DNA of 59,244 nucleotides from Lentisphaerota bacterium. Its GTDB lineage: Bacteria > Verrucomicrobiota > Kiritimatiellia > UBA8416 > JABMPJ01. The position numbers were made by a program, and so were the translations under genes. The stretch's first letter is position 1, and the number at the start of each line of letters is the position of its first letter. The stretch spans positions 1 through 59,244 of the forward strand of contig JABMPJ010000210.1 in the NCBI GenBank assembly GCA_013203785.1. Direction: 5' to 3'. The notes beneath the pieces are model-generated. The model ran no database searches, was not told the origin of the DNA, and was given only the letters and a program-made list of their open reading frames with translations. Positions 28,282-56,490 of the stretch are shown here, piece by piece.

Positions 28282-28310
28282 TTGACAGAATCTTTACAAC
28301 TCAATGACAT
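28282..28310 (+). promoter_or_regulatory. Possible sigma70 promoter for the giant gene
   Basis: Perfect TTGACA at 28282, but only a weak -10 (TGACAT) at 17 bp spacing. Confidence 0.25.
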
Positions 28311-28363
28311 GCATCAATGGGTGGCCGGTTATGATTGAAGTAGATGAAAAAGGGGGTTTCCTC

Positions 28364-31300: not shown

Positions 31301-34300
31301 TATTACGCAGGCTACATCGACGAGGTCGCGGTTCTGGAACGGGCGATGTCAGATGCCGAAGTGGGGGCGCTAGCGGGTGTCGGACGCGGACTGGGCTCGG
31401 GGGCGGAGTTCATTGGCACGCCTATCGATGCTGGCCGTGTATCGATCTGGCGGCAGATTTCGTGGGGTGCGGATGGGCCGCATGGGACGCCTCTTCAAGC
31501 AGGCGATACCACACTGACAGGACTCTGGCATCTGGATGAGGTGAGCGGGGCAGCCATGGATTCAAGTGGTGCCGGAAACGACGGCTCCGTGAATGGGGCT
31601 GGATATGGCGGTGGCGGAGTTTTCAGCAACAGTTTTGAATTTTCAGGCGGTGCCACAATTTCGGTAGTGGGTAGTCTAGGCTTGGTAACCAGTGTGACGG
31701 CCGAGGCTTGGATTAATACGCACGATCCGAGGGGTGCGGTTGTCTTTGACCGCACGGACGGGGTAAGCGGGTTCATGATTGGGCTTGACGGTGAGGGTCG
31801 GCCCTACTTCAAGATGGGTGCCGTCGAAGCCCGTTCGGATCTTCCCCTGCAGGTTGACCGCTGGTCTCATCTGGCCGGTACGTACGATGGCAGCATGGCT
31901 CGATTGTATATGGATGGCGTGTTGCGCGCGGCTCAGAAAGTCATCGGTGTGTCGGCCGATTCGGGTACGTCGTTCGTAATCGGTGATGAACGGGGCGGAG
32001 GCTCTCGATTTATCGGGCAGATTGATGAAGCAGCGGTCCATAACCGGACACTTGTTGATGAAGAGATCCGTGACCATTATCGCTCCGGGACAGGCGATAT
32101 CCGGTTCCAGGTGCGTGGTGGTGACACGCTGCCCCTGTCGGGTGATTTCATTGGGCCGGACGGAACGGCGAACAGCTACTTCAGGGAATTCTGGGGCTCG
32201 CAGACCGCAGCCGTGCTTCCTGTCCAGAAGTATCTACAATACCGTGCGGTAATGGACAATGACAATCACCGCATGCCCGCTGTTCTGCGCGGGGTGCAGG
32301 CGGACGTCACCAGCTACTCGACTGTGAACCCATGGGTCGAACCAGCGGATGGATTCGGGTACGACTTTGTGGGACGACTGACGTCCTTCGGCCATGCTCT
32401 CGGCGTTGCCGGTCCCAATACCGAGGTGCGCTACCAGCTTTCTGGCGATAATGGTGTGAATTGGTTCTACTGGAATGATACGGCCCTCCAGTGGGATGCG
32501 CCGGCAGGCTTCGGCTATCCGTTAGACATGTCTGACGAACCGACGGTTGCGGCTAATATCGGGTCGTTCTTTGATCAGCTCTACCCCACGAATGGCGGCA
32601 TACTCAAGTTCCGCGCATTCCTTCACTCCGAGGGAGACTACCAGATTGAGTTAGATGAAGTTAACCTGCAGGCATCTACGGGACGACTGCTGGTCACACA
32701 ACCCAACGGATTGGAGGTCGGTCAGGATGCATGGGTGATTGGTACCACGAACATCATAAGTTGGGCCAACGGTGGGTCGGTAGGCGGATCTCTGAAGATC
32801 CAGTTCTCGGATGATGGTGGGCAGACGTGGAAATTGGTCAATGCAGCGGTGCCGAATTCGGGCCCGACGGGGGCCTATGCGTGGGTGACGCCGGGGACGG
32901 AGTTGGCTAGCGAGCGGAACCAGTGCCGGATTAGGATCAGCGATAATGGGGATGCGACGATTTGGGATACGTCGGATGCTAACTTCGCGCTGGTTTATCG
33001 CTATAGGTTGACGGCACCGAACGGGGGAGAGGTGTGGTATACGGGCGAACCCAACGTGATCCGGTGGCAGTCGCCTCCGGGGTTGGGCGACCAGGCGGAT
33101 CTCTACTACAATCTGAACGGGTTCAATCAACTGAACGGTGCCGGCTGGCGGAAGTTCGCGACGGTGCCGAACAATAATCTGGGCAGCGCGGATAATATGT
33201 ACACATGGGTGACGCCGAAGGATGATCCAGATCTCATCTCATCGTTGGCGCGCGTCAGGATAACGATCCAGGGCGCAGTGAGCTTCAGCGATATGTCGGA
33301 TGCTTCGTACACGATGGCGGGTATTCGGATTACGGATCCGAGCTCGTCAACGGCGTGGAAACGCGGGTCGACCCAGACGGTGAAATGGAAGGCGGCGGGA
33401 AGCATTACGAACGGGGTGACGCTTGAGTACTCCGGCGACAGTGGTGCGTCGTGGACCAATGTCCAGGCGGTGGTGCCCTGCGTGGTGGGCAGCAATACGT
33501 ATGCGTGGACGATTGCGGCGGATAACCCGACGCCAAACGCTCGCCTCCGAATGGTGTCGCGTACGGAGCCGCGGATCTTTGCGGAGTCGGATATTTTCAC
33601 GGTGGCGGATATTGACATCAAGGCACCAGTGGCCGCGCAAGAATGGCAGACACTACAGACGAACGATATCGTATGGACCGCCGGCGGCGCGGGCGACAAG
33701 GTCAATCTCTATTATTCGATCGATAATGCGGCGAGCTGGGTTGGGATCGACCTGGATGTCGATAACGTGGACTTCCCTGCGACGAACCGGTATGCGTGGG
33801 TGGTGCCGGATCTTCCCGGCGATTCGCTGATCAGGATCCAGTCGACGCTGAGTGCCCAGCTATTTGCGGATTCGCCTCTGTTTAAGATTGCGGGTATCCG
33901 GGTGACGCAGCCGAACGGCGGCGCGCGCTGGGAGCTGGCCCAGGAGAGCCAGTTGAACTGGGTGGAAGCAGCGTCGGGCGGTGGCTGTCTGGTGCAGTTC
34001 TCCTACGACGGCGGGAACAGCTATGTGAACTTGGCCGGACCGGGCTTCCCGCTGCTGGCGCGGAGTTATGCCTATACGCCGATTACGCCGACGGTGCGGG
34101 CGCTGGTGAAGGTGTCGGCGACGGATGCGGCTTATGCTCTGCTGGGCGTGAAGGGGCAGTCGGACGGCGATTTCACGGTGGCGGGTGTCAAGGTGACCTC
34201 CCCGCTACAGGACCATGTCATCAAGATGGGGGTGGAGACGGTCGAGGCGATGCGGTGGCTGTCGGCGGGGTTGCTGGATGACAGTGTGGACGTGATCTAT

Positions 34301-37300
34301 AGTGACGGAACGACGGAGACGACGCTCTTCGCGGGAACGTTCAACAACGAGAGCTTCAATGACGCAACCCATATCTCCGGTTTGAATGTGCGTGACTGGA
34401 TTCCTGCGGCATCGTTGAATCCGTCTGGGAATGCACGGCTCAAGGTGATGGGCGGAGTGCCAGAAACGACGGGAGAATACACAGGAATCTCGCCCCGCTT
34501 CACGCTACAGGGGGTGCGGATAACGCAGCCGACCACGGGCAGTACGTTTGACATCAACTCGACCCGCGAGATCCGCTGGCTGAACGCGGGCTTCGAGGCG
34601 GCGGCCAAGGCTCGGATGTTCCTCTCCACGGATGGAGGGGCTACATTCAGTCCGACCCAACTGTTCACGCCCGATACAGCCCTGAACCTGCAGATCAAGA
34701 GCTGGACGGTGGCGCTGGGGACGGCCCCGACGACGAATGCGGTGCTCAAGCTAACGGTGACGGATAGTGCGACGGCGTTCAACGCCTATTCACTGCCATT
34801 TACGCTCAAGGGTTTGAAAGTGAATCTTCCGACGTTTGGTACGAGCTGGGACCTGGGTGCCACACAGAATATCCAGGTGCAGGCGGCGGGTGCGGGTAAT
34901 TCGGTGAAGATGTACTACTCGCCCCATGGCGTGACCTTCGATACGGCCAACCCGATCGGGGAGGGTGTGCCGATTGTGGATGGAATCAACAATCTGCCAT
35001 GGCCGATCGAGACGTTCCGGGAACCGTCAACGAATGCGCGTATCCGGGTGGATTCGGTGCTGACGGATGCGACGATTGTCTCCGATCCGTTCACGGTGGC
35101 GGGTATTCTGGTGACGGATCCATCGAGCGTGAATATCTGGGCGGCCACGGAGACCAATCACATTGAGTGGATCGCCGTCGGTACGGCCGAAAACGTGACG
35201 ATTGAGCTCCTGGATTCGAGTTACTCGGTCGTGGCGATGATCGCCACGGCCTTAACGGGAGCGTCGTCCTATGACTGGCCGACGCCGCTGTCGGCGGTGG
35301 GAACCGATCTGCGGATCCGCGTGACGGATACGAGTGGCTATGTAGGAATCTCAAATCCGTTCAAAATTGTGGCGGACCCGACCCTGGAGGTCTTGCAACC
35401 GGTAGATGGCGCGTTCTTGAAGAACGGGAATACCTACCAGGTCGTGTGGACAAAGGCGGGCGGTATGCCGCTGACGTTTGAGGCGAGCTATTCGTTCGAT
35501 AACTTTGCCACGACGAACGTCATCAGTGGGGTGCCCGTCTTCTCGAACAACCAGTATTTCCTGAGCTGGACCCTGAGCGATCCAGCAGCGTTGGGGCTGG
35601 CCAAGATCCGGGTGGTTAATACGACGATAACGTCGATCCAGGATACGACGGCGAATGTTGACTTGGTGGGCAACTTCCGTGTGGGACCGCCCAACGGCGG
35701 CGAGCGGTACTTCGCCCTGAAGCCGACGGTGGTGACCTGGTTCACGCTGGGCGACGTCTTCAACGTGGATCTCTACTACTCGGTCGATCCGCTGCGCGCG
35801 CCGGGGAGCTGGATCAAGATCAACCAGGGCGGACCGGTTGTGGGTCGCGGGCACAACAACTCGAGTCAGTATTTCTGGTCGGTGGCTGATCATCGCAGCA
35901 GTACGGTCTGGCTGCGGGTCCAGGATGCGAATTACACGCAGATGTTTGCCGCTAACCAGGAAGGGCCGTTCGACGACTGCAATGGGACCTTCAGCATCGT
36001 CTACTATCAGATCCAGTGGCATGTGTATGATAACGATACAGGTCTTGACCTTGACCGGGCCAGCGTAGGAGACAGTTCGGGCTGGTCGGAATCTGGACTA
36101 CAGTCCCCGATCATACACGCCTACCCCTACGGTAACTTCGATTCGGTCTGGTCGCGCGAGCTCTTTTCCGACAAGGTGGTGTTTGACTGGCTGTCGGAAC
36201 CCGAACGCGTGATCGATGTGCCGATGGTGAAATCGGACCAAGCGGCCGTATTTAACGTCAGGGCGAATTTCGCATATGATTCGGCCAACCGCTCATTCGC
36301 AATTCAGTCTTGGCTGGAGCGCGGCGGACAGATCTTGGCGACGGCGGCGGCTTCCGTCATCAAGATCTACGATTCGGCAGGCGTTCTAATTAAGACCATC
36401 CCCAACAGCGCACCCCTGAATGGCGTGTTCTGGGACACATGGGATGTGGGTGCCACAGAGATCGCACTGGGACGGACGTTCAATGCCAGCGAGGTCTTCT
36501 TCGCTAAGGTTGTGATCAACTTCTCCGGGGTGGAGTACTCGTCCGGTCTGACCTTCCAGCTCAGGCAGCCCGCCGATGACAGCATCCTCCAGGTCATCGA
36601 CGTCATAGAGGCCGCGACCTCCAATATTCTGGACGAGGTCTCGGGCATAGGCACCATGATCGGCGGCGTGAGCAACCAGGTCTCGGGGGTCAGCAACCAG
36701 GTCACGGCGCTCTCAGGCCAGTTGGGTCAGGGGGTTGCTGATATTTTGGGTGCGGTGGGAACTAACCGGGTGCTGCTGACGGATCAGGTCATTCCGGGAA
36801 TCACGGATATCAGTAACAACTTGGTGAATGTCTATGGTCCGACGATAACGAGCACGTGGGACGTGGTCCAGCTGATCAGCGGTGCGGTTGGCGGGGCCAG
36901 CATTCTGACTCGTCCGCTCGCGCTTGTGCGCGACAGCACCAATACCTTCCTCTATCGCACGGCCAATTTTGACCCCAGTGTGGTTGAGCTGGATGTGTAC
37001 GATTCAACAGGCGGCCTTCTGGCGCACTACAACATGCAGCGCTACGGAGCGGTAACGGGTGTCTATTACGCCAACGTGGTGGCTGCCTATGCCGTGGATA
37101 GCTGCGTGATCGCCTGTTCAGATCCGAATGCTTCGGACCGTATTGTGGTCGATATTGTCGACGCGACCTCCGGGGATCTTCCGAACCTGATGGCGGACGT
37201 GCTCGCCAGCGTGACCCGGATGGAGAATTCGATCACAAATCTGTCGTCGCTGAGCGGTGACATGACCGTCCTGGTGGGCGTGCTGAATGGGATGACGAAT

Positions 37301-38482
37301 GAGCTACAGGCTCTGACTCTGGCGGTTCAGAATCTGCCGGACCTGGGCGTCCTGACGAATCAGCTCGACTCTCTTGAAGCGGCGGTGTTGGCGATCCCGG
37401 ATATGAGTTTCCTGACCAACTCGATCAATGCTCTGGCGACGGCGGTTCAGAACCTACCGGATCTGGGTGTGCTAACCAACCAGCTGGATAACCTGGAAGC
37501 TGCGGTGCTGGCGATTCCGGACTTTGGCAGTATGTCCAATCAATTGGCTACGCTCGAGGCTGCGGTGCTGGCGATTCCAGACTTTGGCAGTATGTCCAAT
37601 CAGCTGGCAGGTATCAGCCTGGCGGTGGGTGGCCTGACGAACTTGGATGTCACCGCAATCGATACTAAGCTGACCGATTTGCGGACCGATCTGGATACGC
37701 TGATTGGCTTCGATCTGGCGGGCATGCAGACCTCCATCGACAACATCCTGGCCGCGCTGAATGTGGTTGAAGGGACGGATGTGACAGGCATTGAGAGCAA
37801 GCTCTCGGCGTTGCAGTCGGCCATACAGGGGCTCGAGGGGGCCGACCTGACGGGCGTGGATGCGAAGCTGAATACGCTACAGAGCACGGTGGCTGGCTTG
37901 GGGAGTGTCGATATTGCGGCGGTTGACCGGATTGAATCCAGGCTGGGTGCGGCAACGGATGGCAGTGGTGCGGACACCTTCTTCGGGAAGCTGAGGGCGA
38001 TCGAAGGATCGGTGGACTCGGTTGGCGTATCGGCTGAGGGGGCCAAGAAGAATGCCTCCAGTGCGAAGACGCAGGCGACCGATGCGGCGTCGGGGATCTC
38101 GGCGCTGAAGCGGGCGCTGGCGGCTGGGGATTCGGAGGAGGCCTCGCGGCAGTTGGTGGCGATACGGCAGGCGTTGATGTCGGCCAAGGCGGAGATTGAG
38201 AGGATACCGGACGGCGTGAGCCTGGCGCAACTGCAGGGCGAGCTGGGCGGCACCCGTAAGATTCTCGATGAGCTGGCCGCGAGCAGGGGCTTCACCTGGC
38301 TGACCGGAATGGAAGAAGAGGATCTGGTGGGTAAGGGCGAAGGCGAAGGTGAAGCTAATCTGAATGATCTGGGCACCAGCGTCGAGGCCATGCAGGGCAA
38401 TATGGAGTTCCTGCTTAAGCTGCTCGATGAGAAGGCCTACAAAGTGGAGGTCCACGAGCAGTGGCTTGGGGTGAAGGAGTAG
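28364..38482 (+). CDS. Giant secreted protein: 4 LamG-like domains, ~11 PNGGE-type Ig-like repeats, C-terminal coiled coil
   Basis: RBS-like AAGGGGG and signal peptide ending AALG. LamG motifs (W.HLAGTYDG...RLY.DG, F.G.IDE). Repeats I.VT.PNGGE....I.W. Confidence 0.85.
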   Translation: MSSVCCVCRSFFLGALLGFVLAPAALGVEPRSWPLTTPAQYSVSDSNDIQVAGGVARLQFSDLSFSHGELDQYSAGSTAGAALYYGADTSLGLRKDVGLYAAGSQFTSRVIASPPGNLWKAIRIATSSDTVANNNEIETRADLDGLAALYHFNDDGVYDSVTGSNGVMKSGAGYDTDAVFGSHAFAGYLGNGVAELAGTGILHLAEGATIACWVKVREEFTRIGTPEFMTPFLMNGATKQLTFRLKSMYHPFLFTSCTTEFPIEVGKWYFLAGTYDRADGYVRLYIDGHLQASGTRNQPGWLVRDDAGPWTVGYNHPYIDFKANVDEVMLFRRAFSALEIEALYRQGLGVKVQVRSGASTNLVSAFVGPDGTNSTYVTGGHALNFGYGFDPSAPYLQYRAYIANAVERTSTPLLDSVVFLGTGTDLFDDTLGDFTRGAYGADVVTYPAEKTGSFLGLSKLASGGYRTEGAFISQPLDAGGIVTWTKLSWVQGNRALANDIVGLLGLWPMDGSWSDISGNNRSGTETPSVVYTPYAKVGTKSTLFNGEDASVSIGGVGSVKTLEFWIDYDDPNGGLFELVGEATGPSATVILTNGWLQVNNWAGSVDVYVNGYNGAAVLESGWNHVALVVDAAQSVSNMVVGQIQGDYFHGKLDDLAAFDRPLAAGEIAMHYQDGLRESAGQVVFQVRSGDTTEELEGSAFTGTYTGGAGSDLFGQSGRYLQYKINMSGDGNGTPSVQSVRVNYNVIFDVSETRAEDFSAGTFVDEETRWYGNEIAKENLGSIGPFNARPTGDTSWKGLWHMDEEVWAAGLTVKDSSGNSRDGSPQGDARTEEKGRVGTRCGLFDGAEDYVSLQAIPTILDKDFTLGLWFKTSSTNRAGLISNFDGVRYWSLEINGDGSGAEVQGAASFIIDDTTVEKSAAAVGMSLNDGYWHHIAGVRRSPYIHLYIDGARVASTWIGDAYSFLGIGAPLVAKYGTSEIYYAGYIDEVAVLERAMSDAEVGALAGVGRGLGSGAEFIGTPIDAGRVSIWRQISWGADGPHGTPLQAGDTTLTGLWHLDEVSGAAMDSSGAGNDGSVNGAGYGGGGVFSNSFEFSGGATISVVGSLGLVTSVTAEAWINTHDPRGAVVFDRTDGVSGFMIGLDGEGRPYFKMGAVEARSDLPLQVDRWSHLAGTYDGSMARLYMDGVLRAAQKVIGVSADSGTSFVIGDERGGGSRFIGQIDEAAVHNRTLVDEEIRDHYRSGTGDIRFQVRGGDTLPLSGDFIGPDGTANSYFREFWGSQTAAVLPVQKYLQYRAVMDNDNHRMPAVLRGVQADVTSYSTVNPWVEPADGFGYDFVGRLTSFGHALGVAGPNTEVRYQLSGDNGVNWFYWNDTALQWDAPAGFGYPLDMSDEPTVAANIGSFFDQLYPTNGGILKFRAFLHSEGDYQIELDEVNLQASTGRLLVTQPNGLEVGQDAWVIGTTNIISWANGGSVGGSLKIQFSDDGGQTWKLVNAAVPNSGPTGAYAWVTPGTELASERNQCRIRISDNGDATIWDTSDANFALVYRYRLTAPNGGEVWYTGEPNVIRWQSPPGLGDQADLYYNLNGFNQLNGAGWRKFATVPNNNLGSADNMYTWVTPKDDPDLISSLARVRITIQGAVSFSDMSDASYTMAGIRITDPSSSTAWKRGSTQTVKWKAAGSITNGVTLEYSGDSGASWTNVQAVVPCVVGSNTYAWTIAADNPTPNARLRMVSRTEPRIFAESDIFTVADIDIKAPVAAQEWQTLQTNDIVWTAGGAGDKVNLYYSIDNAASWVGIDLDVDNVDFPATNRYAWVVPDLPGDSLIRIQSTLSAQLFADSPLFKIAGIRVTQPNGGARWELAQESQLNWVEAASGGGCLVQFSYDGGNSYVNLAGPGFPLLARSYAYTPITPTVRALVKVSATDAAYALLGVKGQSDGDFTVAGVKVTSPLQDHVIKMGVETVEAMRWLSAGLLDDSVDVIYSDGTTETTLFAGTFNNESFNDATHISGLNVRDWIPAASLNPSGNARLKVMGGVPETTGEYTGISPRFTLQGVRITQPTTGSTFDINSTREIRWLNAGFEAAAKARMFLSTDGGATFSPTQLFTPDTALNLQIKSWTVALGTAPTTNAVLKLTVTDSATAFNAYSLPFTLKGLKVNLPTFGTSWDLGATQNIQVQAAGAGNSVKMYYSPHGVTFDTANPIGEGVPIVDGINNLPWPIETFREPSTNARIRVDSVLTDATIVSDPFTVAGILVTDPSSVNIWAATETNHIEWIAVGTAENVTIELLDSSYSVVAMIATALTGASSYDWPTPLSAVGTDLRIRVTDTSGYVGISNPFKIVADPTLEVLQPVDGAFLKNGNTYQVVWTKAGGMPLTFEASYSFDNFATTNVISGVPVFSNNQYFLSWTLSDPAALGLAKIRVVNTTITSIQDTTANVDLVGNFRVGPPNGGERYFALKPTVVTWFTLGDVFNVDLYYSVDPLRAPGSWIKINQGGPVVGRGHNNSSQYFWSVADHRSSTVWLRVQDANYTQMFAANQEGPFDDCNGTFSIVYYQIQWHVYDNDTGLDLDRASVGDSSGWSESGLQSPIIHAYPYGNFDSVWSRELFSDKVVFDWLSEPERVIDVPMVKSDQAAVFNVRANFAYDSANRSFAIQSWLERGGQILATAAASVIKIYDSAGVLIKTIPNSAPLNGVFWDTWDVGATEIALGRTFNASEVFFAKVVINFSGVEYSSGLTFQLRQPADDSILQVIDVIEAATSNILDEVSGIGTMIGGVSNQVSGVSNQVTALSGQLGQGVADILGAVGTNRVLLTDQVIPGITDISNNLVNVYGPTITSTWDVVQLISGAVGGASILTRPLALVRDSTNTFLYRTANFDPSVVELDVYDSTGGLLAHYNMQRYGAVTGVYYANVVAAYAVDSCVIACSDPNASDRIVVDIVDATSGDLPNLMADVLASVTRMENSITNLSSLSGDMTVLVGVLNGMTNELQALTLAVQNLPDLGVLTNQLDSLEAAVLAIPDMSFLTNSINALATAVQNLPDLGVLTNQLDNLEAAVLAIPDFGSMSNQLATLEAAVLAIPDFGSMSNQLAGISLAVGGLTNLDVTAIDTKLTDLRTDLDTLIGFDLAGMQTSIDNILAALNVVEGTDVTGIESKLSALQSAIQGLEGADLTGVDAKLNTLQSTVAGLGSVDIAAVDRIESRLGAATDGSGADTFFGKLRAIEGSVDSVGVSAEGAKKNASSAKTQATDAASGISALKRALAAGDSEEASRQLVAIRQALMSAKAEIERIPDGVSLAQLQGELGGTRKILDELAASRGFTWLTGMEEEDLVGKGEGEGEANLNDLGTSVEAMQGNMEFLLKLLDEKAYKVEVHEQWLGVKE
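37322..37621 (+). repeat. 5 x 60-bp (20-aa) intragenic tandem repeat
   Basis: AVQNLPDLGVLTNQLDSLEA / AVLAIPDMSFLTNSINALAT / AVQNLPDLGVLTNQLDNLEA / AVLAIPDFGSMSNQLATLEA / AVLAIPDFGSMSNQLAGISL. Confidence 0.85.
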
Positions 38483-38505
38483 GGTTCGTGGCTGGGGTGG
38501 GGGAG

Positions 38506-38647
38506 AGACTGCCCGCAGATGACGTAGATGGACGCAGATGGGATCGGGATCGGGAACGGGATGAGGGGAATGTGTCCGGGCGCTTCGATGTCGACTCTTC
38601 CTTCTCCGACCCCATCTGCGCTGATCTGCGTCATCTGCGGGCAGTCT
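38506..38647. repeat. Family A palindromic element, copy 1
   Basis: agactgcccgcagatgacgtagatggacgcagatggg ... cccatctgcgctgatctgcgtcatctgcgggcagtct (~37-bp inverted arms). Confidence 0.9.
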
Positions 38648-38672
38648 TTTCCAGAAGTTGAGGAGTGTGGTT

Positions 38673-39146
38673 GTGGCTGACTATCCTTTGTCTGACGAGA
38701 CCTATCGGATTATTGGGGCCTGCTTCGAGGTCTACAATGAGAAGGGGTGCGGTTTCCTGGAGCCTATCTACCAGGAATGTCTCGAAATGGAGTTCGGTCT
38801 ACAGGGCATCCCGTTCAATGCACAGGTGGAGCTGATCTTGGACTATAAGGGGCGCAGGCTGCAGAAGAAGTATGTCCCGGACTTCATCTGTTTTGGCGGA
38901 GTCATTGTCGAGATAAAGGCCTGTAAGGAGATTGTGGCTGAGCATAGGGCACAGTTGATTAATTATCTCCATGCGACTGAGATGAAGGTGGGGATGCTGG
39001 TCAACTTTGGGCACTATCCCGGCTTGCAGTTTGAGCGCTTTGTGAATGAGGGCAAGGAACGGACTGCAGGCCGCGCGATGGTACGGGAGATTCCTTTGGT
39101 GTGGGGGCAGGGGAGTCTGCCCGCAGATGACACAGATGTACGCTGA
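38673..39146 (+). CDS. GxxExxY protein (PD-(D/E)xK nuclease fold)
   Basis: GAGGAG RBS 7 nt before GTG 38673; IIGACFEV...GCGFLEPIYQECL, PDF....VIVEIK, AQLINYL, G.LVNFG. Confidence 0.92.
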   Translation: MADYPLSDETYRIIGACFEVYNEKGCGFLEPIYQECLEMEFGLQGIPFNAQVELILDYKGRRLQKKYVPDFICFGGVIVEIKACKEIVAEHRAQLINYLHATEMKVGMLVNFGHYPGLQFERFVNEGKERTAGRAMVREIPLVWGQGSLPADDTDVR

Positions 39147-39261
39147 TGGGATCGGGATCGGGATGTGGAACGGGATGAGGGGAATGTGTCCGGGCGCTTC
39201 GATGTCGACTCTTCCTCCTCCGACCCCATCTGCGCTGATCTGCGTCATCTGCGGGCAGTCT
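39117..39261. repeat. Family A element, copy 2 (direct repeat of copy 1)
   Basis: Differs from copy 1 by 5 substitutions and one 6-bp indel; contains the GxxExxY stop codon. Confidence 0.9.
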
Positions 39262-39314
39262 CTTCCTGAGACTTCGGAGTTTACACGCTGGGGCACGCAG
39301 GGTAGGGTCTCGGC

Positions 39315-41345
39315 ATGGTTCGTTGCTCGCGGTTCGTACCCTATATTCCCCTGTTGATTGTGCTGGGGGGCGTGTTGAGTTATCTCAACACATTCGGAAA
39401 CCCCTTTATCTTTGACGACCTGCCTGCCATCGTGGGCAATCGCAATATCGGGCAGCTCTGGCCTGTCATTCCAGGGGCCCGGTGGATCGTTAATCTCTCC
39501 TTCCGCCTAAATTATGCGCTCGCCGGGTTCAGTGTGGCTGAGTATCACGCGGTCAACCTGCTGATCCACATCTGGGCAGCGCTGCTTCTCTTCGGTATTG
39601 TGCGTCGCACCCTCGCCCTGCCAGGGCTGCGCACGCTGTGGGGTGATGCCGCGCCATGTCTCGCCGGGGTGAGCGCGCTGCTGTTCGTGGTGCATCCCCT
39701 CCAAACCGGTAGCGTGAGCTATCTCTGTCAGCGTTATGAATCCATGATGGGTCTCTTCTTCCTGGGGACGCTCTATGCCTTCATCCGTGCTGTGACAGCT
39801 GGCTCTACGCGTAGCCAATGGGGATGGGCGACGGGGACGATTGCACTCTGTCTGCTGGGTATGGGCACCAAGGAAGTCATGCTGACGGCTCCTTTCGTGC
39901 TTCTGCTGTATGATTGGATCTTCCTGGGGAAGGGGGCCGTCCCAACCCCCTCCCCACACAGGCCCTCGCTCTTGAGGTGGTTCATTCATGTGGGCTGTTT
40001 CGCCAGTCTGCTCGTTCTGCTTGTCTTTGAGCTGCAGATGGTACGTGAGCTGTCGGCAGGTGGTCACGACATGGTGAGCGTGGTGTCGCCCTGGCTCTAT
40101 CTGGCGACGCAGACGGAGGTCATTCTGCACTATCTACGGTTGGCCGTGTGGCCGACGGGTCAATGTCTGGACTATGCGTGGCCGATCGTGGCGGGGTGGG
40201 GCGAGATATGGCCGGCCGCACTGGCGGTGATCGGCTTGGGCTTGCTGACGCTATGGGGCACGTGGAAACGGATGCCCTGGGCATTTCTGGGCGGCTGGTT
40301 CTTTCTGATTCTAGCACCCTCCTCCAGTCTGCTTCCCGCACCCGATGCGGCGTTCGAACACCGTATGTACCTGCCATTGGCAGCGGTGTTGGTGGGGTAC
40401 GTGATCGGAGCCTACCGGCTTCTGAGATCACATGTCATGCGCTCGCCACGTATGGGGGCAATTCTGGTAGTGGCCGCGATGGGTCTGGCGGTGGTTCTGG
40501 GATGGGGCACACATCTGCGCAATCGCTGCTATGCCACGAGTGAGGCGATGTGGCGTGATGTCATGGCCAAGCAGCCGGGGAACTACCGTCAGCGACTGGC
40601 GCTCTTCCATGCCCTCTTCAATCGGGGGGACGATGCGGAGGCGGAGCAGGTGATCCGATCGCTGATGGCGGATACAGTGGATGGGTTTAACCGGGGGGAG
40701 AGCTCGGTGGTAGCGGCACGGGATCCCTTCTGGCACTACGCCGTGGCACGCGGACAATGGGGGCGGCTGCTGCTGCGCCGCGGCGATGCGGCCGCTGCGG
40801 TGACGGAGATCGCGTCGGCGATTCGGGCGCTACCGGGACATTCGGTGCTGCACCACAATATGGCGCGGGCCCTCTCGGCGTTGGGGCGCTATGATGAGGC
40901 GCTGCTGGCTTCACAGGAATCGCTGCGGCTGGATCCGAGCTATGCACGCGGGCACGGGATGATGGGGTTCCTGCTCGTTCAGCGGGGCGATTATGGCGGC
41001 GGCGCGGCGGCGTACCGTGAGGCGTTGAGACTGAGTCCACCACCGCACCATGCACTCAGCCTGGAGTATGCCTGGCTGCTGGCAACGGCGCCGGACGCAG
41101 CGGTGCGGCTGGGCACCGAGGCTGAGCGGATCGCGGCGGAGGTGAGCCGGGCGCTGGAGGGCCGCAGTGCGCGAGCCCTTGATGTGTTGGCGGCGGCTCA
41201 GGCGGAGCAGGGGCGATTTGATGAGGCGATTGAGACGGTGAAGCTGGCGCTGGCGTTGGCGGGGGAAGAGGAGCGGGAGGGGCTGCGGGAGAGGCTGGAG
41301 TGTTATGGCCGTGGTGAGGCGGCCGGCGGATGGCCGCGGATGTGA
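39315..41345 (+). CDS. TMTC-like (GT-C) membrane protein with C-terminal TPRs, putative protein O-mannosyltransferase
   Basis: FIFDD in the first loop, YH.VNLLIH, HPLQT.SV.Y..QR.E, KE, YLRL..WP..QCLDY, EHRMYLP, followed by TPR helices. Confidence 0.78.
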   Translation: MVRCSRFVPYIPLLIVLGGVLSYLNTFGNPFIFDDLPAIVGNRNIGQLWPVIPGARWIVNLSFRLNYALAGFSVAEYHAVNLLIHIWAALLLFGIVRRTLALPGLRTLWGDAAPCLAGVSALLFVVHPLQTGSVSYLCQRYESMMGLFFLGTLYAFIRAVTAGSTRSQWGWATGTIALCLLGMGTKEVMLTAPFVLLLYDWIFLGKGAVPTPSPHRPSLLRWFIHVGCFASLLVLLVFELQMVRELSAGGHDMVSVVSPWLYLATQTEVILHYLRLAVWPTGQCLDYAWPIVAGWGEIWPAALAVIGLGLLTLWGTWKRMPWAFLGGWFFLILAPSSSLLPAPDAAFEHRMYLPLAAVLVGYVIGAYRLLRSHVMRSPRMGAILVVAAMGLAVVLGWGTHLRNRCYATSEAMWRDVMAKQPGNYRQRLALFHALFNRGDDAEAEQVIRSLMADTVDGFNRGESSVVAARDPFWHYAVARGQWGRLLLRRGDAAAAVTEIASAIRALPGHSVLHHNMARALSALGRYDEALLASQESLRLDPSYARGHGMMGFLLVQRGDYGGGAAAYREALRLSPPPHHALSLEYAWLLATAPDAAVRLGTEAERIAAEVSRALEGRSARALDVLAAAQAEQGRFDEAIETVKLALALAGEEEREGLRERLECYGRGEAAGGWPRM

Positions 41346-41357
41346 TGTGAGGTGTTT

Positions 41358-41715
41358 GGGCTGCTGACGTAGTGGGGGAGTTTGCCCGCAGATGGCCGCA
41401 GATGTTCGCAGATGGGATGTGGGTGGTGTACTGGTGTGTGGATGAGGGATGTGGCGGGAATCGCCCAGATCGGAATACCGATCTGAACGATTCCCGCCAC
41501 GTTTCACCTGGCTGCTGATCGCAGCCGAAGGGGCGCTTGGGCTGTCGGAGTGCATCGCAGGAAAGTTGGGCTTTCGGTTGGATTCTGTTCCCATGAGTGT
41601 AGCCAGGGGTTTTGCCGGGCGCGATTGGCGCCGACGGATTCGCACAACAGTTCCCGTTCCCATCTGCGCAGATCTGCGGCCATCTGCGGGCAACTCCCCA
41701 CTGCGTCAGCAGCCC
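41358..41715. repeat. Family A element, copy 3, MITE/REPIN-like with ~58-bp terminal inverted repeats
   Basis: gggctgctgacgtagtgggggagtttgcccgcagatggccgcagat ... atctgcggccatctgcgggcaactccccactgcgtcagcagccc; fills the gap between two convergent stops. Confidence 0.88.
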
Positions 41716-43203
41716 TCACCGTGCGGCGCGAATGAGCCGCGGTAGGATCATGGGTGCGATGAGCGTGAGGTAGAGCAGAATGGCGCTGATGGCCATGCCC
41801 GCAGAACGTGACACGAGCCGCTCAACCGGCCCCGCCCAGAGGGAGAGAGAGAGCAGGCCCACGCCGCAACCTGAGATGTAGAGGGCGCGGGAGGGCGCGA
41901 GTCCAAATGAGGGCATCTTCACTTTCAAAAGCACAAAGCCAGCTATTCCCATCACGGCATGCGTACAGCACACCGCAATGGCCGCGCCACGAAGTCCGTA
42001 TTTGGGAATCAGCCATAAGCAGAGTCCGACGTTGATCAGCGGTCCGAACAGCATGATGAGTGATGTTGTGTGGTTGCGTTGCTTGGCATTCCAGGCGTTG
42101 AAGCAGAAATAGCCGGAGATATAGAGGATCATGCCAGCCGCAAGGTATGGAAGGAGGGCGCCCGCAGCGACGAATTGTTCTGAAAAGAGCAGGGCAATGA
42201 TCCGATTTCCGAAGGGCACCGTCACCAGCAAGGCAAGCCAGAGCAACGCCAGCATGGCGTTGACAAAATCGGAACAGAGCTTGGCAATGGCCGGTTCCGA
42301 ATCGCCTTCTCCCCACATGGCCGCGATCACCGGTATGCTGACCGTGGGTAGGATGATCAATAGGGCGTAAAGGATCATCACAATCGGCACGGCCACACTA
42401 TAGACCGCCATGGCGGTTGCCCCGAGCAACATCGTTGCCACAAGCTGGTCCACGTAGAGCACGGTCTGGGCACTGATGTTAAAAATCGCCAACCAGAGTC
42501 CTCTGATCAAATATCTACCGACCCCCTGCAGTGAGAAATAGCGAAGGTGCATATCTACACGCCCGGACCCCACGATGTAGGACATGGCCAACAAGCAGAA
42601 GAGGCCGCTGCCGCCTATAAAGAGGAGCGGTGGCACGCGGATCGATGGCCCGCAGCGCAAGGCAACCATCAGCATCAGCATAAACTTTAGGAGCAGCATC
42701 CCGTAGCCAACGACAAACGCCCTAAATGAACAGAGCACAGCAAAGAGATGCCCCTCCAAACAGAATAGGGGGAAGAAGAATGCCATCAGGCGAATAGCAT
42801 CCACGGCTTCCTCTTGGTGAAAGAAGTGCGTAGCCAGCCAAGGGGCCAGGATCCAAAAGCCGATAGTGCCCATCACCCCGGAGAGCACCTTGTAGAGGGC
42901 CGTGGAGAAAAAAATGTGACTGACCGCCTCTGTGTCGCCGGCCGCGTGCTCTTTCGATATGGCTATTGTGGAGTAATTGGCCCCGCCCAGATCGATCAGT
43001 ATGGCGGTGAAGAATAGGACGGTATAGTTGATGTAGAACCAGCCAAAATCGGCCGGCGCTAGCGTTAGGGCCCAGTGGCGGCGCAGGACAAGATTGACGA
43101 GCCCCATCCCCACGGTACTCACCAGTCCGATTAGTGTGCCTTGGGCAAGGTGTTTATGGTGCGACGTCTGTATTGGTGTTTGCGCCATATGTGGGGGGAG
43201 CAT
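41716..43203 (-). CDS. wzx: Oligosaccharide flippase (Wzx/MATE-like)
   Basis: LAPADFG, D.G, VDQLV...LLG...AVYSVA, NVGL...LIPKYGLRGAAIA; many TM segments. Confidence 0.78.
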   Translation of the reverse strand: MLPPHMAQTPIQTSHHKHLAQGTLIGLVSTVGMGLVNLVLRRHWALTLAPADFGWFYINYTVLFFTAILIDLGGANYSTIAISKEHAAGDTEAVSHIFFSTALYKVLSGVMGTIGFWILAPWLATHFFHQEEAVDAIRLMAFFFPLFCLEGHLFAVLCSFRAFVVGYGMLLLKFMLMLMVALRCGPSIRVPPLLFIGGSGLFCLLAMSYIVGSGRVDMHLRYFSLQGVGRYLIRGLWLAIFNISAQTVLYVDQLVATMLLGATAMAVYSVAVPIVMILYALLIILPTVSIPVIAAMWGEGDSEPAIAKLCSDFVNAMLALLWLALLVTVPFGNRIIALLFSEQFVAAGALLPYLAAGMILYISGYFCFNAWNAKQRNHTTSLIMLFGPLINVGLCLWLIPKYGLRGAAIAVCCTHAVMGIAGFVLLKVKMPSFGLAPSRALYISGCGVGLLSLSLWAGPVERLVSRSAGMAISAILLYLTLIAPMILPRLIRAAR

Positions 43204-43294
43204 AGCATAGCGTCGCCGATTGGCTAACTAGATCTAGAAGGAAGAGTTAAGTCAGAAATGATGAACGCTTCCCTGAATGATTCATGAACTATTA

Positions 43295-43680
43295 GGAGAG
43301 GCTGCCCGCAGATCACGCAGATCGGCGCAGATGGGAGGGCTGAGGGGGGGGGTGAGAAATGTTGCGAGAATAGTGCAGCGGGGAATACCCCTCTGAACGA
43401 TTCTCGCAACGTGGCTCCCCGGTGGCTGATCGCCGCCAGTAGGGATGGGAAAACAGCAAGCAGCCATGGAGGTGAGATGGAAGGGGTTATGAGTCTGGAT
43501 ACGGGTCTTTCCGGCTGCGATCAGCAGCTGGCGGATAAGGTTGAGCGAATCCTATGGCGGAGGCTTGTCCTACGAAGCTTCAGCGAAGTAGGATATTCCT
43601 CTGCCGACGGATTCGCTCAACATTTCTTCTTTCCCATATCCCATCTGCGCGAATCTGCGTCATCTGCGGGCAGTCCCTCT
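43295..43680. repeat. Family A element, copy 4 (two inverted arm+H-hairpin halves, nested family B)
   Basis: Arms at 43302 and 43673; H hairpins at 43359-43412 (+) and 43538-43623 (-); family B at 43564-43593. Confidence 0.85.
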
Positions 43681-43769
43681 CCCCCTCTTCACGAGATCAA
43701 GAATTTGATGGATGGATCAGGCCAAATGGTGCGCCCGAATCGCTATGCAACGACCCTGGGGGGTTTTTA

Positions 43770-44657
43770 ATGATCTGGATTACTGGTGCCAATGGAATGC
43801 TGGGTAGCGATTTGGTGCCGCTATTGCGCGACGGGGGATGGGATGTGCTGGCGACCGATGCCGAGGTTGATGTCCGCGATAGTGAAGCGCTACGGGTGGC
43901 CGTGGCGAGCAAACCAATCGATTGGGTGATTAACTGTTGTGCTTATACGGCCGTTGACGCCGCCGAGGCCAACGAGGCGGCCGCCATGGCAATCAATGTC
44001 GACGGGGCCGCGCATGTGGCGGAGGTGGCCACGTCGCTCCAGGCCCGCATGATCCATATCTCGACGGACTACGTCTTTGACGGGCAAGCCACGCATCCCC
44101 GAACGGAGGATGAGCCGCGCTCCCCGATCGGAGTATATGCCCGCTCTAAGGCTGAAAGTGAAAAGCGCGTTGCGGCCGCCGCACCTGATTCCACGATTCT
44201 TCGGACCGCCTGGTTGTATGGGCACCATGGCGGCAATTTTGTGCATACGATGCTGCGTCTTATGGAAGAACGGGAGCAGATCTCCGTCGTGAACGACCAG
44301 TTCGGCTCTCCAACGCAGACGGTCACGCTCTGTCGCGTCATCCGCCAGATAATCCGTCGGGACGTCCACGCCGACGGCATCTACCATGTCACGAGCCGTG
44401 GTGAAACCTCGTGGTATGGGTTCGCGCTAGCCATTCGCGATCTGGCCCTTGAGCGCGGATTGCTCTCGCACCCGTGTGAAGTGAAGCCGATAGCCACGGT
44501 AGACTATCCCACCCCGGCACGTCGCCCACCCTACTCCGTGCTCTCATGTGCCAAGATTGAGGGCCTTCTTGATATTGAGCTGCCTTCGTGGCAGTCCAGC
44601 CTGGCCACTTTCCTCACAGAGGCGGCCGAGCTGCCGAAGCACACAGCCGTCGTATAG
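43770..44657 (+). CDS. rfbD: dTDP-4-dehydrorhamnose reductase
   Basis: MIWITGANGMLG, NCCAYTAVD.AE, HISTDYVFDG, YARSK, VVNDQFGSPT, YPTPARRP.YSVL. Confidence 0.93.
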   Translation: MIWITGANGMLGSDLVPLLRDGGWDVLATDAEVDVRDSEALRVAVASKPIDWVINCCAYTAVDAAEANEAAAMAINVDGAAHVAEVATSLQARMIHISTDYVFDGQATHPRTEDEPRSPIGVYARSKAESEKRVAAAAPDSTILRTAWLYGHHGGNFVHTMLRLMEEREQISVVNDQFGSPTQTVTLCRVIRQIIRRDVHADGIYHVTSRGETSWYGFALAIRDLALERGLLSHPCEVKPIATVDYPTPARRPPYSVLSCAKIEGLLDIELPSWQSSLATFLTEAAELPKHTAVV

Positions 44658-44667
44658 GGAGCCGCGA

Positions 44668-44937
44668 GGAGAGGCTGCCCGCAGATCACGCAGATCGACG
44701 CAGATGAGAGGGATGATGGGGGGGCCGTGAGTCAGCGATACTTGTCGATGAGTCTGGATACGGGTCTTTCCGGCTGCGATCAGCAGCTGGCGGATAACGT
44801 TGAGCGAATCCTATGGCTGAGGCTTGTCCTACGAAGCTTCAGCGAAGTAGGATATTCCTCCGCCGACGGATTCACTCAACATTTCTTCTTTCCCATATTC
44901 CATCTGCGTCGATCTGCGTGATCTGCGGGCAGTCTCT
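44668..44937. repeat. Family A element, copy 5
   Basis: 44748-44934 matches 43489-43675 with ~9 mismatches in 187 bp; family B at 44823-44852. Confidence 0.88.
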
Positions 44938-44997
44938 GTCTCTCTCGTCACACGATCTCTAAACGAACTCCCTCGCTATTCTTGCATGACTCCCTGA

Positions 44998-45735
44998 CTA
45001 ATCCTTGATGCACTTGAGATAGCCGTTTGGCGCGCAGGTGATCAGCAGCTTGCTGTCGATATCCTTGTCCACGACAAAGCGGTCGTTTTTCTCCAGAAAC
45101 GCCCATACCGCTGTCTTGGGGTTGTTGCCCTTGCCCCAGGGGCGCTCAGAGAAGAGCGCGTCATCCGCATCCTCGATGCCGGTATCTAGTACGATGAGAT
45201 AGCTGCCCTTCTTAACCAGCGAGGCATAGAGATCAAGTTCCCGCATCACATGGTCATGGGTGTGATTGGAGTCTAGAACCACCATCACGCGCGGCTTTCC
45301 CTCAGCAAACTGGTGTACCTGCCGCGCAATCTCCTCGTCGATGGATGATCCCTCGATCATGTGAATGCGCTTCACCATGGGGTGGGCCTCGATAGCCGCG
45401 CGGTTGTGCTCCCGGATGTCGATGTCGACGCCAAGCACCTCGCCGTGGCCGAGTAGCTCCAGCATGGAGGCATGAAAAATGATGGAGCCGCCATGGGCAA
45501 TGCCGGTCTCAATAATCAGATCGGGCTTTACCTCCCAAATCAACTCCTGCATCGCCATGATGTCCTGAGGAAACTGGATGATCGGTCGGCCCATCCACTT
45601 GAAGAAATAGCTATACTTGTGGGGTGCGGAGTCCTCCATGAAGCAACGGGCGGTCGCACGAAGGCTCTCGTTCTTTCCTGCAGCCTCAATATCGGCGCGT
45701 TTCTCCTCTTCAAACTGTCGGACTGCATCATTCAT
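44998..45735 (-). CDS. CmcI (cephalosporin hydroxylase) family, probable sugar O-methyltransferase
   Basis: WMGRPIIQFPQD, KPDLIIETGIAHGGS, LDSNHTHDHV, WGKGNNPKTAV. Confidence 0.9.
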   Translation of the reverse strand: MNDAVRQFEEEKRADIEAAGKNESLRATARCFMEDSAPHKYSYFFKWMGRPIIQFPQDIMAMQELIWEVKPDLIIETGIAHGGSIIFHASMLELLGHGEVLGVDIDIREHNRAAIEAHPMVKRIHMIEGSSIDEEIARQVHQFAEGKPRVMVVLDSNHTHDHVMRELDLYASLVKKGSYLIVLDTGIEDADDALFSERPWGKGNNPKTAVWAFLEKNDRFVVDKDIDSKLLITCAPNGYLKCIKD

Positions 45736-54787: not shown

Positions 54788-54815
54788 GCTCTATCTCTGT
54801 CCTTACTGCCCGGTA

Positions 54816-55021
54816 GGGCTGCTGACGCAATGGGGATACTGCCCGCAGATCACGCTGATGGACGCAGATGGGAACGCGAAGGTCCCCGCCCATACTCGCA
54901 GAAATCGCATGCATCCCAGATTCCAGCTCTCTTTCGAAGCGTTCCAACATCCCTTTCCATGTCGTCAAAGTACCCATATCACATCTCATTTCTATCTGCG
55001 CAGATCTGCGTGATCTGCGGG
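54816..55021. repeat. Family A element, copy 6
   Basis: gggctgctgacgcaatggggatactgcccgcagatcacgctgatggacgcagatggga ... atctgcgcagatctgcgtgatctgcggg. Confidence 0.85.
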
Positions 55022-56320: not shown

Positions 56321-56490
56321 CTGCTAACGCACTGGAGAGACTGCCCGCAGATCACGCAGATGGACGCAGATGGGATCGGGAACAAGAATGAAACTGTTGT
56401 ACGAATCCGTCGGGCGCTGATTCCTCCACATCCCTTACCCATATCCTCTCTCATCTGCGAAGATCTGCGGCCATCTGCGGGCAAACTCCC
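56321..56490. repeat. Family A element, copy 7, overlapping the rfbG 3' end
   Basis: ctgctaacgcactggagagactgcccgcagatcacgcagatggacgcagatggga ... catctgcgaagatctgcggccatctgcgggcaaactcccc. Confidence 0.88.

Follow-up and report, generated by a model that had tools for sequence, protein, structure and literature searches.

Small DNA elements that keep palindromic pairing are described under several names, of which the repetitive extragenic palindromic (REP) sequences with their doublets (REPINs), the miniature inverted-repeat transposable elements (MITEs), the integron attC sites, the intervening sequences of 23S rRNA, and the subterminal hairpins of the IS200/IS605 elements are the nearest to the case considered here. 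The present analysis concerns a conserved hairpin, designated as H, in a window of 59,244 nucleotides (nt), the whole stretch of contig JABMPJ010000210.1 that was analysed (assembly GCA_013203785.1, Lentisphaerota bacterium, a draft of 4.0 Mb with 59.5% G+C; genome G000 and contig C200 below). H is a real, significantly covarying hairpin, and it is best explained, at a probability of roughly 0.45, as a structure-constrained stem-loop module lying immediately inward of the ends of small inverted-repeat insertions, a family tied to cassettes of a GxxExxY nuclease gene, a hairpin at the DNA level being favoured. This explanation is built on the anatomy of the elements, their link with the nuclease cassettes, their presence or absence between species, the fixed polarity of H, and the compensatory change in its stem. 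New here are two covarying hairpin modules, H and a smaller “box”, inside a Kiritimatiellia lineage of GxxExxY elements with heptamer arms.

For the REP and REPIN palindromes it is the folded single strand that a nuclease-type enzyme of their own probably recognises, and the likeness to H lies in short intergenic palindromes of many copies, which keep their pairing and often form inverted doublets. In PMC3733652 they are defined by a palindrome of 20–40 nt with a conserved GTAG or CGTC head. In contrast, H is 54 nt long, has ATGT and ACGT flanks in place of such a head, and lies inside arms of 36 nt composed of heptamer arrays, while the gene that goes with it encodes a PD-(D/E)XK nuclease of the GxxExxY type and not the Y1 (HUH) transposase known as REP-associated tyrosine transposase (RAYT). 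A link of H with RAYT genes was rejected, since the 14 matches to PF01797 lie on 12 contigs, none of which is among the H contigs C4, C12, C93, C104, and C200, as far as the draft assembly permits such a test. These 14 Y1_Tnp matches (frames of 207–369 aa; contigs C179, C126, C172, C135, C91, C222, C82, C167, C114, C19, C59, and C6) represent an unusually large set of IS200/RAYT-like paralogs, and none is near H.

The MITEs, known in bacteria from the Correia elements of Neisseria and Chunjie of Geobacter, are small, non-coding, bounded by terminal inverted repeats, placed between operon genes, and present or absent among relatives. The H elements likewise have terminal inverted repeats, small size, and no open reading frame (ORF), they are polymorphic in insertion between species, and a longer gene-carrying element shares their ends (the cassette on contig C45 of the related genome G004 against the gene-less element on its contig C13). 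They differ in that the gene of the longer element is no recognised transposase gene, their ends consist of three phased heptamers, and two covarying hairpins lie within. As in a heptamer-arm cassette of the GxxExxY family (PF13366; TIGR04256), inverted arrays of short units bracket either a gene or a gene-less core.

The integron attC sites are imperfect intergenic palindromes as well, in which structure (including fixed unpaired bases) is kept above sequence and which act as folded single-stranded DNA (ssDNA); however, the lower stem and the loop of H are conserved in sequence, its stem ends do not resemble the core sites known from attC, and the flanking genes are in mixed orientation, those between the elements lying on both strands and forming no one-orientation cassette array (no integrase search was made). 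The ORF-bearing intervening sequences of 23S rRNA (S23p), patchy in distribution, hold a small ORF or nothing between long pairing inverted repeats, but the H elements are not in rRNA, belong with another gene family, and possess phased-heptamer arms and additional covarying hairpins. The IS200/IS605 elements carry imperfect hairpins, recognised as ssDNA, just inside their ends; unlike the H elements, they have no terminal inverted repeats, their two ends are unlike, and they use a Y1 transposase. The Foldback elements of Drosophila share long inverted arms of short tandem units and the gene-less state of most copies, though they are eukaryotic and much longer in the arms, and this resemblance is architectural only. 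In summary, REPIN/RAYT, MITEs, attC sites, 23S rRNA intervening sequences, and IS200/IS605 hairpins each share a part of the logic, and each fails in its defining features.

Folding and compensatory change of H

Four copies are situated in the window, H1 and H2 on the plus strand and H3 and H4 on the minus strand. When folding energies were compared with those of 200 dinucleotide shuffles, not one shuffle matched any of the six strands examined. A preliminary description of the window, made from the letters alone, had held that H1 and H2 are of equal length and differ by paired changes; both are indeed 54 nt long, and the paired changes affect the upper stem and two pairs of the lower one, one C/T mismatch being retained in H2. 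It had also taken H3 and H4 for the same hairpin with an insert, and a covariance model (CM), trained on insert-free copies only, aligns both end to end and places an insertion of about 30 nt in the loop. In the consensus of 30 copies the 54-nt hairpin is flanked by ATGT on the 5′ side and by ACGT on the 3′ side, and its lower stem and loop-closing bases are nearly invariant. The box gctgatcgc(a/c)gcc noted behind each H recurs at a spacing of about 6–12 nt and is a small hairpin itself, with an 8-bp stem and a TGATC or TAATC loop, where 16 variants show covariation at 2 of the 8 pairs.

In the 30-copy alignment 91.7% of cells are paired, in comparison with 30–45% when the partner is slid by 1–3 columns; two-sided changes occur at 13 of the 23 pairs, and the observed covariation score was equalled by none of 500 shuffles. 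The larger alignment, by which the preliminary description had proposed to check its folding claim, comprises 67 distinct copies from 79 sites in 13 genomes. Here a number of pairs occur in three or four Watson-Crick forms and very seldom as a mismatch, all four forms are found at the three pairs adjoining the loop-closing G-C pairs, and the covarying positions span about 23 bp per arm of H. Because the copies are related, changes were counted on a minimum-spanning tree that connects 57 gap-free stem variants and only approximates descent. On this tree 115 two-sided changes were found against 27.8±4.2 expected from column-specific rates (approximately fourfold), exceeding all 2000 permutations (maximum 43) and all shifted-partner controls (25–41 with the partner moved by 1-2 pairs); for 91 of these changes both states form a pair, and 61 one-sided differences on the same tree break a pair. 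Compensatory change has thus repeatedly kept the stem of H paired, which amounts to a structural constraint. The preliminary description had attributed its paired changes to selection on a folded RNA or ssDNA; the conserved base pairing is borne out by the two-sided excess, while the notion of H as an independent structured-RNA locus is not, and H is judged to be no stand-alone RNA but a module of mini-elements derived from nuclease cassettes.

Element anatomy and the nuclease cassettes

Each unit starts with an arm of 36 nt, in which three heptamers follow one another every 10 bp. The opposite arms of an element are inverted, and so are the H copies at its two ends. The order in a complete element is arm, purine-rich linker, H, core, inverted H, pyrimidine-rich linker, and inverted arm. 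The preliminary description was right in reading the unit as arm, purine linker, H, and box and in seeing element E2 (Table 1) as two such units head to head; it has to be corrected for E1, which also consists of two head-to-head units, where only the 5′ half of the right-hand H is left. Arms, linker, H, and box stand in register in seven window elements and on three further contigs. The arms measure 36–41 nt with 88–97% complementarity in E1, E2, and E3, and the H-bearing elements 270–385 bp. The heptamer is CGCAGAT in the window and CACGGAG, CACGGAA, CACGGAT, ACAGGAT, or CACGAAT in relatives with the same layout. A census of triple-heptamer arrays in G000 gave 94 loci against 11 in a locally shuffled control. 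Between left and right arms the inter-heptamer spacers are 62% identical (176/284) and the heptamers 96%, a figure inflated by the selection of pairs and of little weight. The polarity of H follows the nearest arm, which was upstream-only for 31 of 61 copies, downstream-only for 1, and on both sides for 3, with no arm detected for 26, the strict detector missing most CACGGAG-type arms, many of which are visible by eye. The elements begin 0–35 nt after stop codons and are located between convergent or tandem genes; E3, for example, is found between the stop codons of rmlD and a convergent methyltransferase gene.

Table 1: Features of the window, with positions counted from its first nucleotide
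Feature	Position	Strand	Description
Short arm element	38503..38647 (arms 38503-38543, 38611-38647)	.	CGCAGAT-type triple-heptamer inverted arms; heavily truncated inner unit, no intact H; ends shortly before the GxxExxY gene
GxxExxY / PDDEXK_3 small nuclease gene	38658..39146 (domain 38694-39038)	+	PF13366 E 1.7e-40; TIGR04256 E 5.9e-40
Second short arm element	39113..39263	.	near copy of 38503-38647; left arm overlaps the 3′ end of the nuclease ORF
Outer inverted repeat of E1	41358-41377 / 41696-41715	.	outside the arms
E1	41380..41695	.	left arm 41382-41417, purine linker, H1, box, degenerate inverted unit (half-H 41627-41655), right arm 41658-41693
H1	41449..41502	+	-41.9 kcal/mol, z -9.5; CM 81.9 bits; loop AATA on the + strand; CC/AA internal loop
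Box hairpin, unit 1 of E1	41508..41528	+	8-bp stem, loop TGATC
E2	43296..43680	.	two full head-to-head units; left arm 43303-43336, right arm 43639-43672; divergent spacer between Wzx-like flippase and rmlD
H2	43359..43412	+	-31.6 kcal/mol, z -7.2; CM 74.7 bits
Box hairpin, left unit of E2	43419..43439	+	one C/A mismatch, one T·G pair
Box hairpin, right unit of E2	43511..43531	-	part of E2
H3	43538..43623	-	-45.3 kcal/mol, z -8.5; CM 37.5 bits; B insert of about 30 nt (43564-43593) in the loop
E3	44669..44938	.	left arm 44676-44709, degenerate left unit, box, H4, right arm 44900-44937
Box hairpin of E3	44770-44790	-	part of E3
H4	44797..44882	-	-44.9 kcal/mol, z -7.1; CM 42.9 bits; B insert (44823-44852)
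CGCAGAT-arm element without H	54835..55021	.	related arm element
CGCAGAT-arm element with half H	56335..56486	.	only the 5′ half of H (~56390-56420); related arm element

The GxxExxY gene of the window is itself flanked by two near-identical arm elements. The alignment of its family, with a domain of 115–130 aa, retains the D, E/D, and K residues of the PD-(D/E)XK motif (D...E-x-K). An AF2 model reached a pLDDT of 94.3, and a Foldseek search with this model returned only weak, generic PD-(D/E)XK neighbours at E>=1e-3 (Cas4 SSO0001, lambda exonuclease, and Hjc), which name no function; a profile search among the sequences of solved structures gave no relative (best E 0.49). In PMC3424549, the one survey found to name PF13366, its function is given as “Unknown”, and a GxxExxY domain adjoining a reverse transcriptase is mentioned in part of PMC8934634. 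In the literature on GxxExxY, PDDEXK_3, PF13366, and TIGR04256, supplements not being covered, no paper was found that links the family to inverted repeats, MITEs, or Kiritimatiellae.

The association of this gene with the arms is not confined to the window. All 6 PF13366 genes of G000 are bracketed by inverted triple-heptamer arms (two are at contig ends, where one side is visible), as are all 11 complete PF13366 genes of the relatives G001, G003, G004, and G015; in a sample across the phylum a flanking inverted repeat (E<=1e-4) was detected at 16 of 29 PF13366 loci, 14 of the 16 reading as short-unit arrays. Of the 11 cassettes of the relatives, 4 have an H between arm and gene according to the CM, among them the C45 cassette of G004 (L089), in which arms, linkers, and H recur at both ends. 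The gene-less double unit on contig C13 of that genome matches both ends of this cassette (78% over 141–154 nt per half), and therefore the window elements are best read as MITE-like derivatives that arose by internal deletion. In two cassettes (L093 and L097) the order is arm, H, a Shine-Dalgarno-like purine run, and ATG, with an inverted H and then a pyrimidine-rich run behind the gene.

Some further cassettes deserve a separate mention. In three species of the genus, a GxxExxY cassette with CACGGAA arms occupies the space between two genes taken for mnmE and mnmG (G000:C10:1-200 with C211:1-220, where the assembly breaks inside; G001:C24, L096; G003:C8, L092), so that this copy is old and vertically inherited. 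In L091 (G001:C56) and L100 (G015:C180) the arm heptamers CATGAAG and CACGAAT hold in-frame ATG codons directly upstream of the GxxExxY domain, and the arm may thus encode the N-terminus of the protein.

Comparison with the related genomes G001–G005 (the sister species G001 serving for empty sites) revealed insertion polymorphism between species at three orthologous sites. The spacer between two convergent genes that holds the C93 copy, an H element with CGCAGAT arms in G000, is empty (24 nt) in G001, while CACGGAG-armed H elements take this place in G003 and G004. G005 has a palindrome of arms only there, and in G002 the arms surround a small ORF, read from its translation by eye, with no Pfam scan, as GxxExxY-like. 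The spacer orthologous to that of E2 measures about 95 nt in G001 and contains no element, and the genes orthologous to those around E3 abut there with 0 nt between them.

The distribution of H is patchy and multi-copy. The CM search of G000 revealed 8 sites, four in the window and the others on C4, C12, C93, and C104, and H was present in all five other species of the genus. At the level of the order 19 of 64 genomes carry it, with up to 57 and 54 strand-matches (a single site may count on both strands), and the class, sampled evenly, yielded 6 carriers among 121 genomes at E<=1e-6, five of them outside the order. A scan with an exact degenerate pattern, using one genome per prokaryotic species, yielded 28 loci, of which 21 are in metagenome-assembled genomes titled Kiritimatiellia, Verrucomicrobia, Lentisphaerae, or Victivallales; the other 7, in unrelated taxa, were dismissed as chance matches, since none reaches E<0.001 with the CM (best 14.9 bits). 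The preliminary description had proposed a covariance model and an Rfam search and had allowed for H being an element already described. The model finds the further copies, and no Rfam family or paper matches H: a scan of 41000-45400 on both strands gave no match at gathering score, the only two sub-threshold matches being to miRNA models (22.8 and 20.1 bits, the gathering scores being 83 and 100).

Several other sequences accompany the elements. The B insert in the loops of H3 and H4 is a separate short hairpin repeat (a variable stem of 6 bp, a TTCGCC...GGCTAC core, and then C-AAGC), which is also found outside H at about 8488 in the window and at C25:327, C89:2785, C134:309, C177:61506, and C183:32640 of G000, in one case directly after an apparent tRNA 3′ end. 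Its outer (basal) stem varies among copies yet stays complementary, and with GTAG on the reverse strand B may be a REP-like partner of the Y1 transposase-like genes of this genome. An extra outer inverted module (GGGCTGCTGACGCAGTGGGG-like) lies outside some arms (E1, window 54815-54835, G000:C196:4455-4475, and C93:9110-9130), extending in E1 to the flippase stop codon. An ORF of 3392 aa (28304-38482) ends 20 nt before the first arm element. Arm-only heptamer palindromes at G000:C111:4291-4400 and 6263-6368 and at C217:4440-4520 and 5760-5800 fill the spacers of two more polysaccharide-type groups (GT2 glycosyltransferase with NAD-epimerase, and UDP-GlcNAc 2-epimerase-like; names by eye), and the elements seem to gather in clusters of this type.

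DNA-level and RNA-level explanations

In the favoured explanation the core of an element would be a GxxExxY (PDDEXK_3) nuclease gene of the PD-(D/E)XK type or, after internal deletion, a few tens of bases, and the H-bearing elements of the window would be gene-less, MITE-like derivatives inserted in the spacers of a polysaccharide cluster. The heptamer arrays, phased at 10 bp, may serve as duplex-DNA binding sites for a protein of the element or of the host, while H and the box would fold out of single-stranded or cruciform DNA at each end for the copying, cutting, or keeping of the element, and only copies with an intact hairpin would leave descendants. The GxxExxY nuclease is the most likely protein partner and a putative reader of H.

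Some observations weigh against this explanation. The strand reading outward folds better in 45 of the 67 copies against 14, by 2.9 kcal/mol in the mean, and this bias hints at a constraint on one strand, though the copies share descent and a few inherited types of internal loop account for most of the effect. The position of H in L093 and L097, between arm and purine run, would also suit a role in RNA. Genome G033 has 39 CM strand-matches and no PF13366 match (87% complete), and G004 has 54 strand-matches and one PF13366 gene; therefore the nuclease is not obviously needed in cis or in every genome, and the H elements can persist where no nuclease gene is detected (G033). With H in only 4 of the 11 gene-bearing cassettes it is an accessory module, and the apparent link between arms and nuclease is one of co-occurrence. 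A target-site duplication could not be read from the comparison of filled and empty sites, because flanks diverged by about 30% do not permit the boundaries to be placed. The public runs that cover 38400-45100 include no RNA run, and those found were four DNA metagenomes. In contigs of these four DNA metagenome runs (one study) neither movement within a population nor usable polymorphism was found; those covering 38400-45100 all end at the heptamer arms, with repeat-induced joints, so that the order of the gene blocks between elements rests on the scaffolding of the original assembler. Finally, the 67-copy alignment was fitted to the structure of the model, which favours pairing.

A somewhat unlikely but serious alternative places the module at the RNA level, where H and box would act in through-running transcripts as processing or stability hairpins or as insulators for the nuclease mRNA and the flanking genes, and the paired arms would form a long duplex, a substrate of RNase III type, as in the ORF-bearing intervening sequences of 23S rRNA. 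The location of the elements directly past stop codons and between convergent or tandem genes, the order of modules in L093 and L097, and the better folding of the outward-reading strand are all compatible with it, and the symmetry of the element means that a transcript running in from either flank passes the modules in one and the same order. However, one-sided changes away from Watson-Crick pairs show strand symmetry, with 27 G·T, 28 A·C, and 28 other cases (13 against 18 for the first two in the outer stem), whereas in functional RNAs G·U pairs generally far outnumber A·C. The inversion of the end copies of H along with the arms also speaks for DNA. The polarity of H tracks the arm and not the direction of the neighbouring gene, the cases in G000 being mixed. 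The spacers between heptamers, only 62% alike between arms that keep their heptamers, fit protein sites better than an RNA duplex, and the 10-bp phasing is a feature of duplex DNA. No T-tract signature was found at H, and an intrinsic terminator was rejected for H since no T run follows; in 38300-45200 there are 3 terminator-like sites against 4.2 expected, none of which is an H. It is scarcely credible that H represents an independent small RNA gene or a cis-regulatory RNA of the polysaccharide cluster. Although 4 of the 8 copies in the genome are in one such cluster, the remaining copies have unrelated contexts and always adjoin arms, Rfam holds no match, no promoter-like site was found in 38300-45200, and copies come and go between species at fixed gene order.

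Pairing could also be symmetrical for mechanical reasons, with no selection on structure, if template switching or repair within an extruded hairpin copies changes across the arms, a process which the preliminary description had named as a possible source of covariation. It would produce two-sided changes far above independent hits, just as observed, and a few copies are perfect palindromes through the usual position of the internal loop (for example L018:313-374, L036, and L054, by eye). Such an origin is nevertheless improbable. The asymmetric internal loop holds the same stem position in nearly all aligned copies (by eye, not counted), exists in several sequence versions common to different species, and has covarying pairs on both sides. 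Template switching inverts loops, while the loop and the internal loop of H, which set the strand choice of the model, keep one polarity to the arm (31 against 1). The 61 one-sided pair-breaking differences mean that correction by template switching is at best slow. A duplex-DNA operator, in which a dimeric protein reads two inverted half-sites and no hairpin forms, agrees with the nearly invariant lower stem and loop-closing bases, which suit sequence-specific recognition, and with the common action of PD-(D/E)XK nucleases as dimers on symmetric sites. But a dimer needs no self-complementarity in an uncontacted middle, whereas covariation extends over about 23 bp per arm and includes all four Watson-Crick pairs near the loop, and many different stems exist in one genome with only 1–4 nuclease genes, so an operator is very improbable. 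More speculative than the structure-constrained module, and rather doubtful at present, is the extension that these are an undescribed kind of bacterial mobile element, in which heptamer arms, H, and box are the cis sites, the small PD-(D/E)XK (GxxExxY) nuclease replaces a transposase, and a folded ssDNA is the intermediate. The arms would pair on ssDNA and the two unlike H copies fold locally into a branched junction to be cut by the nuclease, and the element would move or home through this folded single strand. If this is true, the compensatory changes in H are the footprint of selection for transposability among the copies.

The interruption of a polysaccharide cluster in nearly every spacer is explained by structured insertions of 150–385 bp, which is relevant to the reading of operon structure, and the breaking of contigs at the arms matters for the assembly of these genomes. 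GxxExxY/PDDEXK_3 is a very large protein family of no known function, for which H and the box give a concrete cis-element; the folded strand matters to the element, and natural compensatory mutants are at hand for assays of nuclease binding and cleavage.

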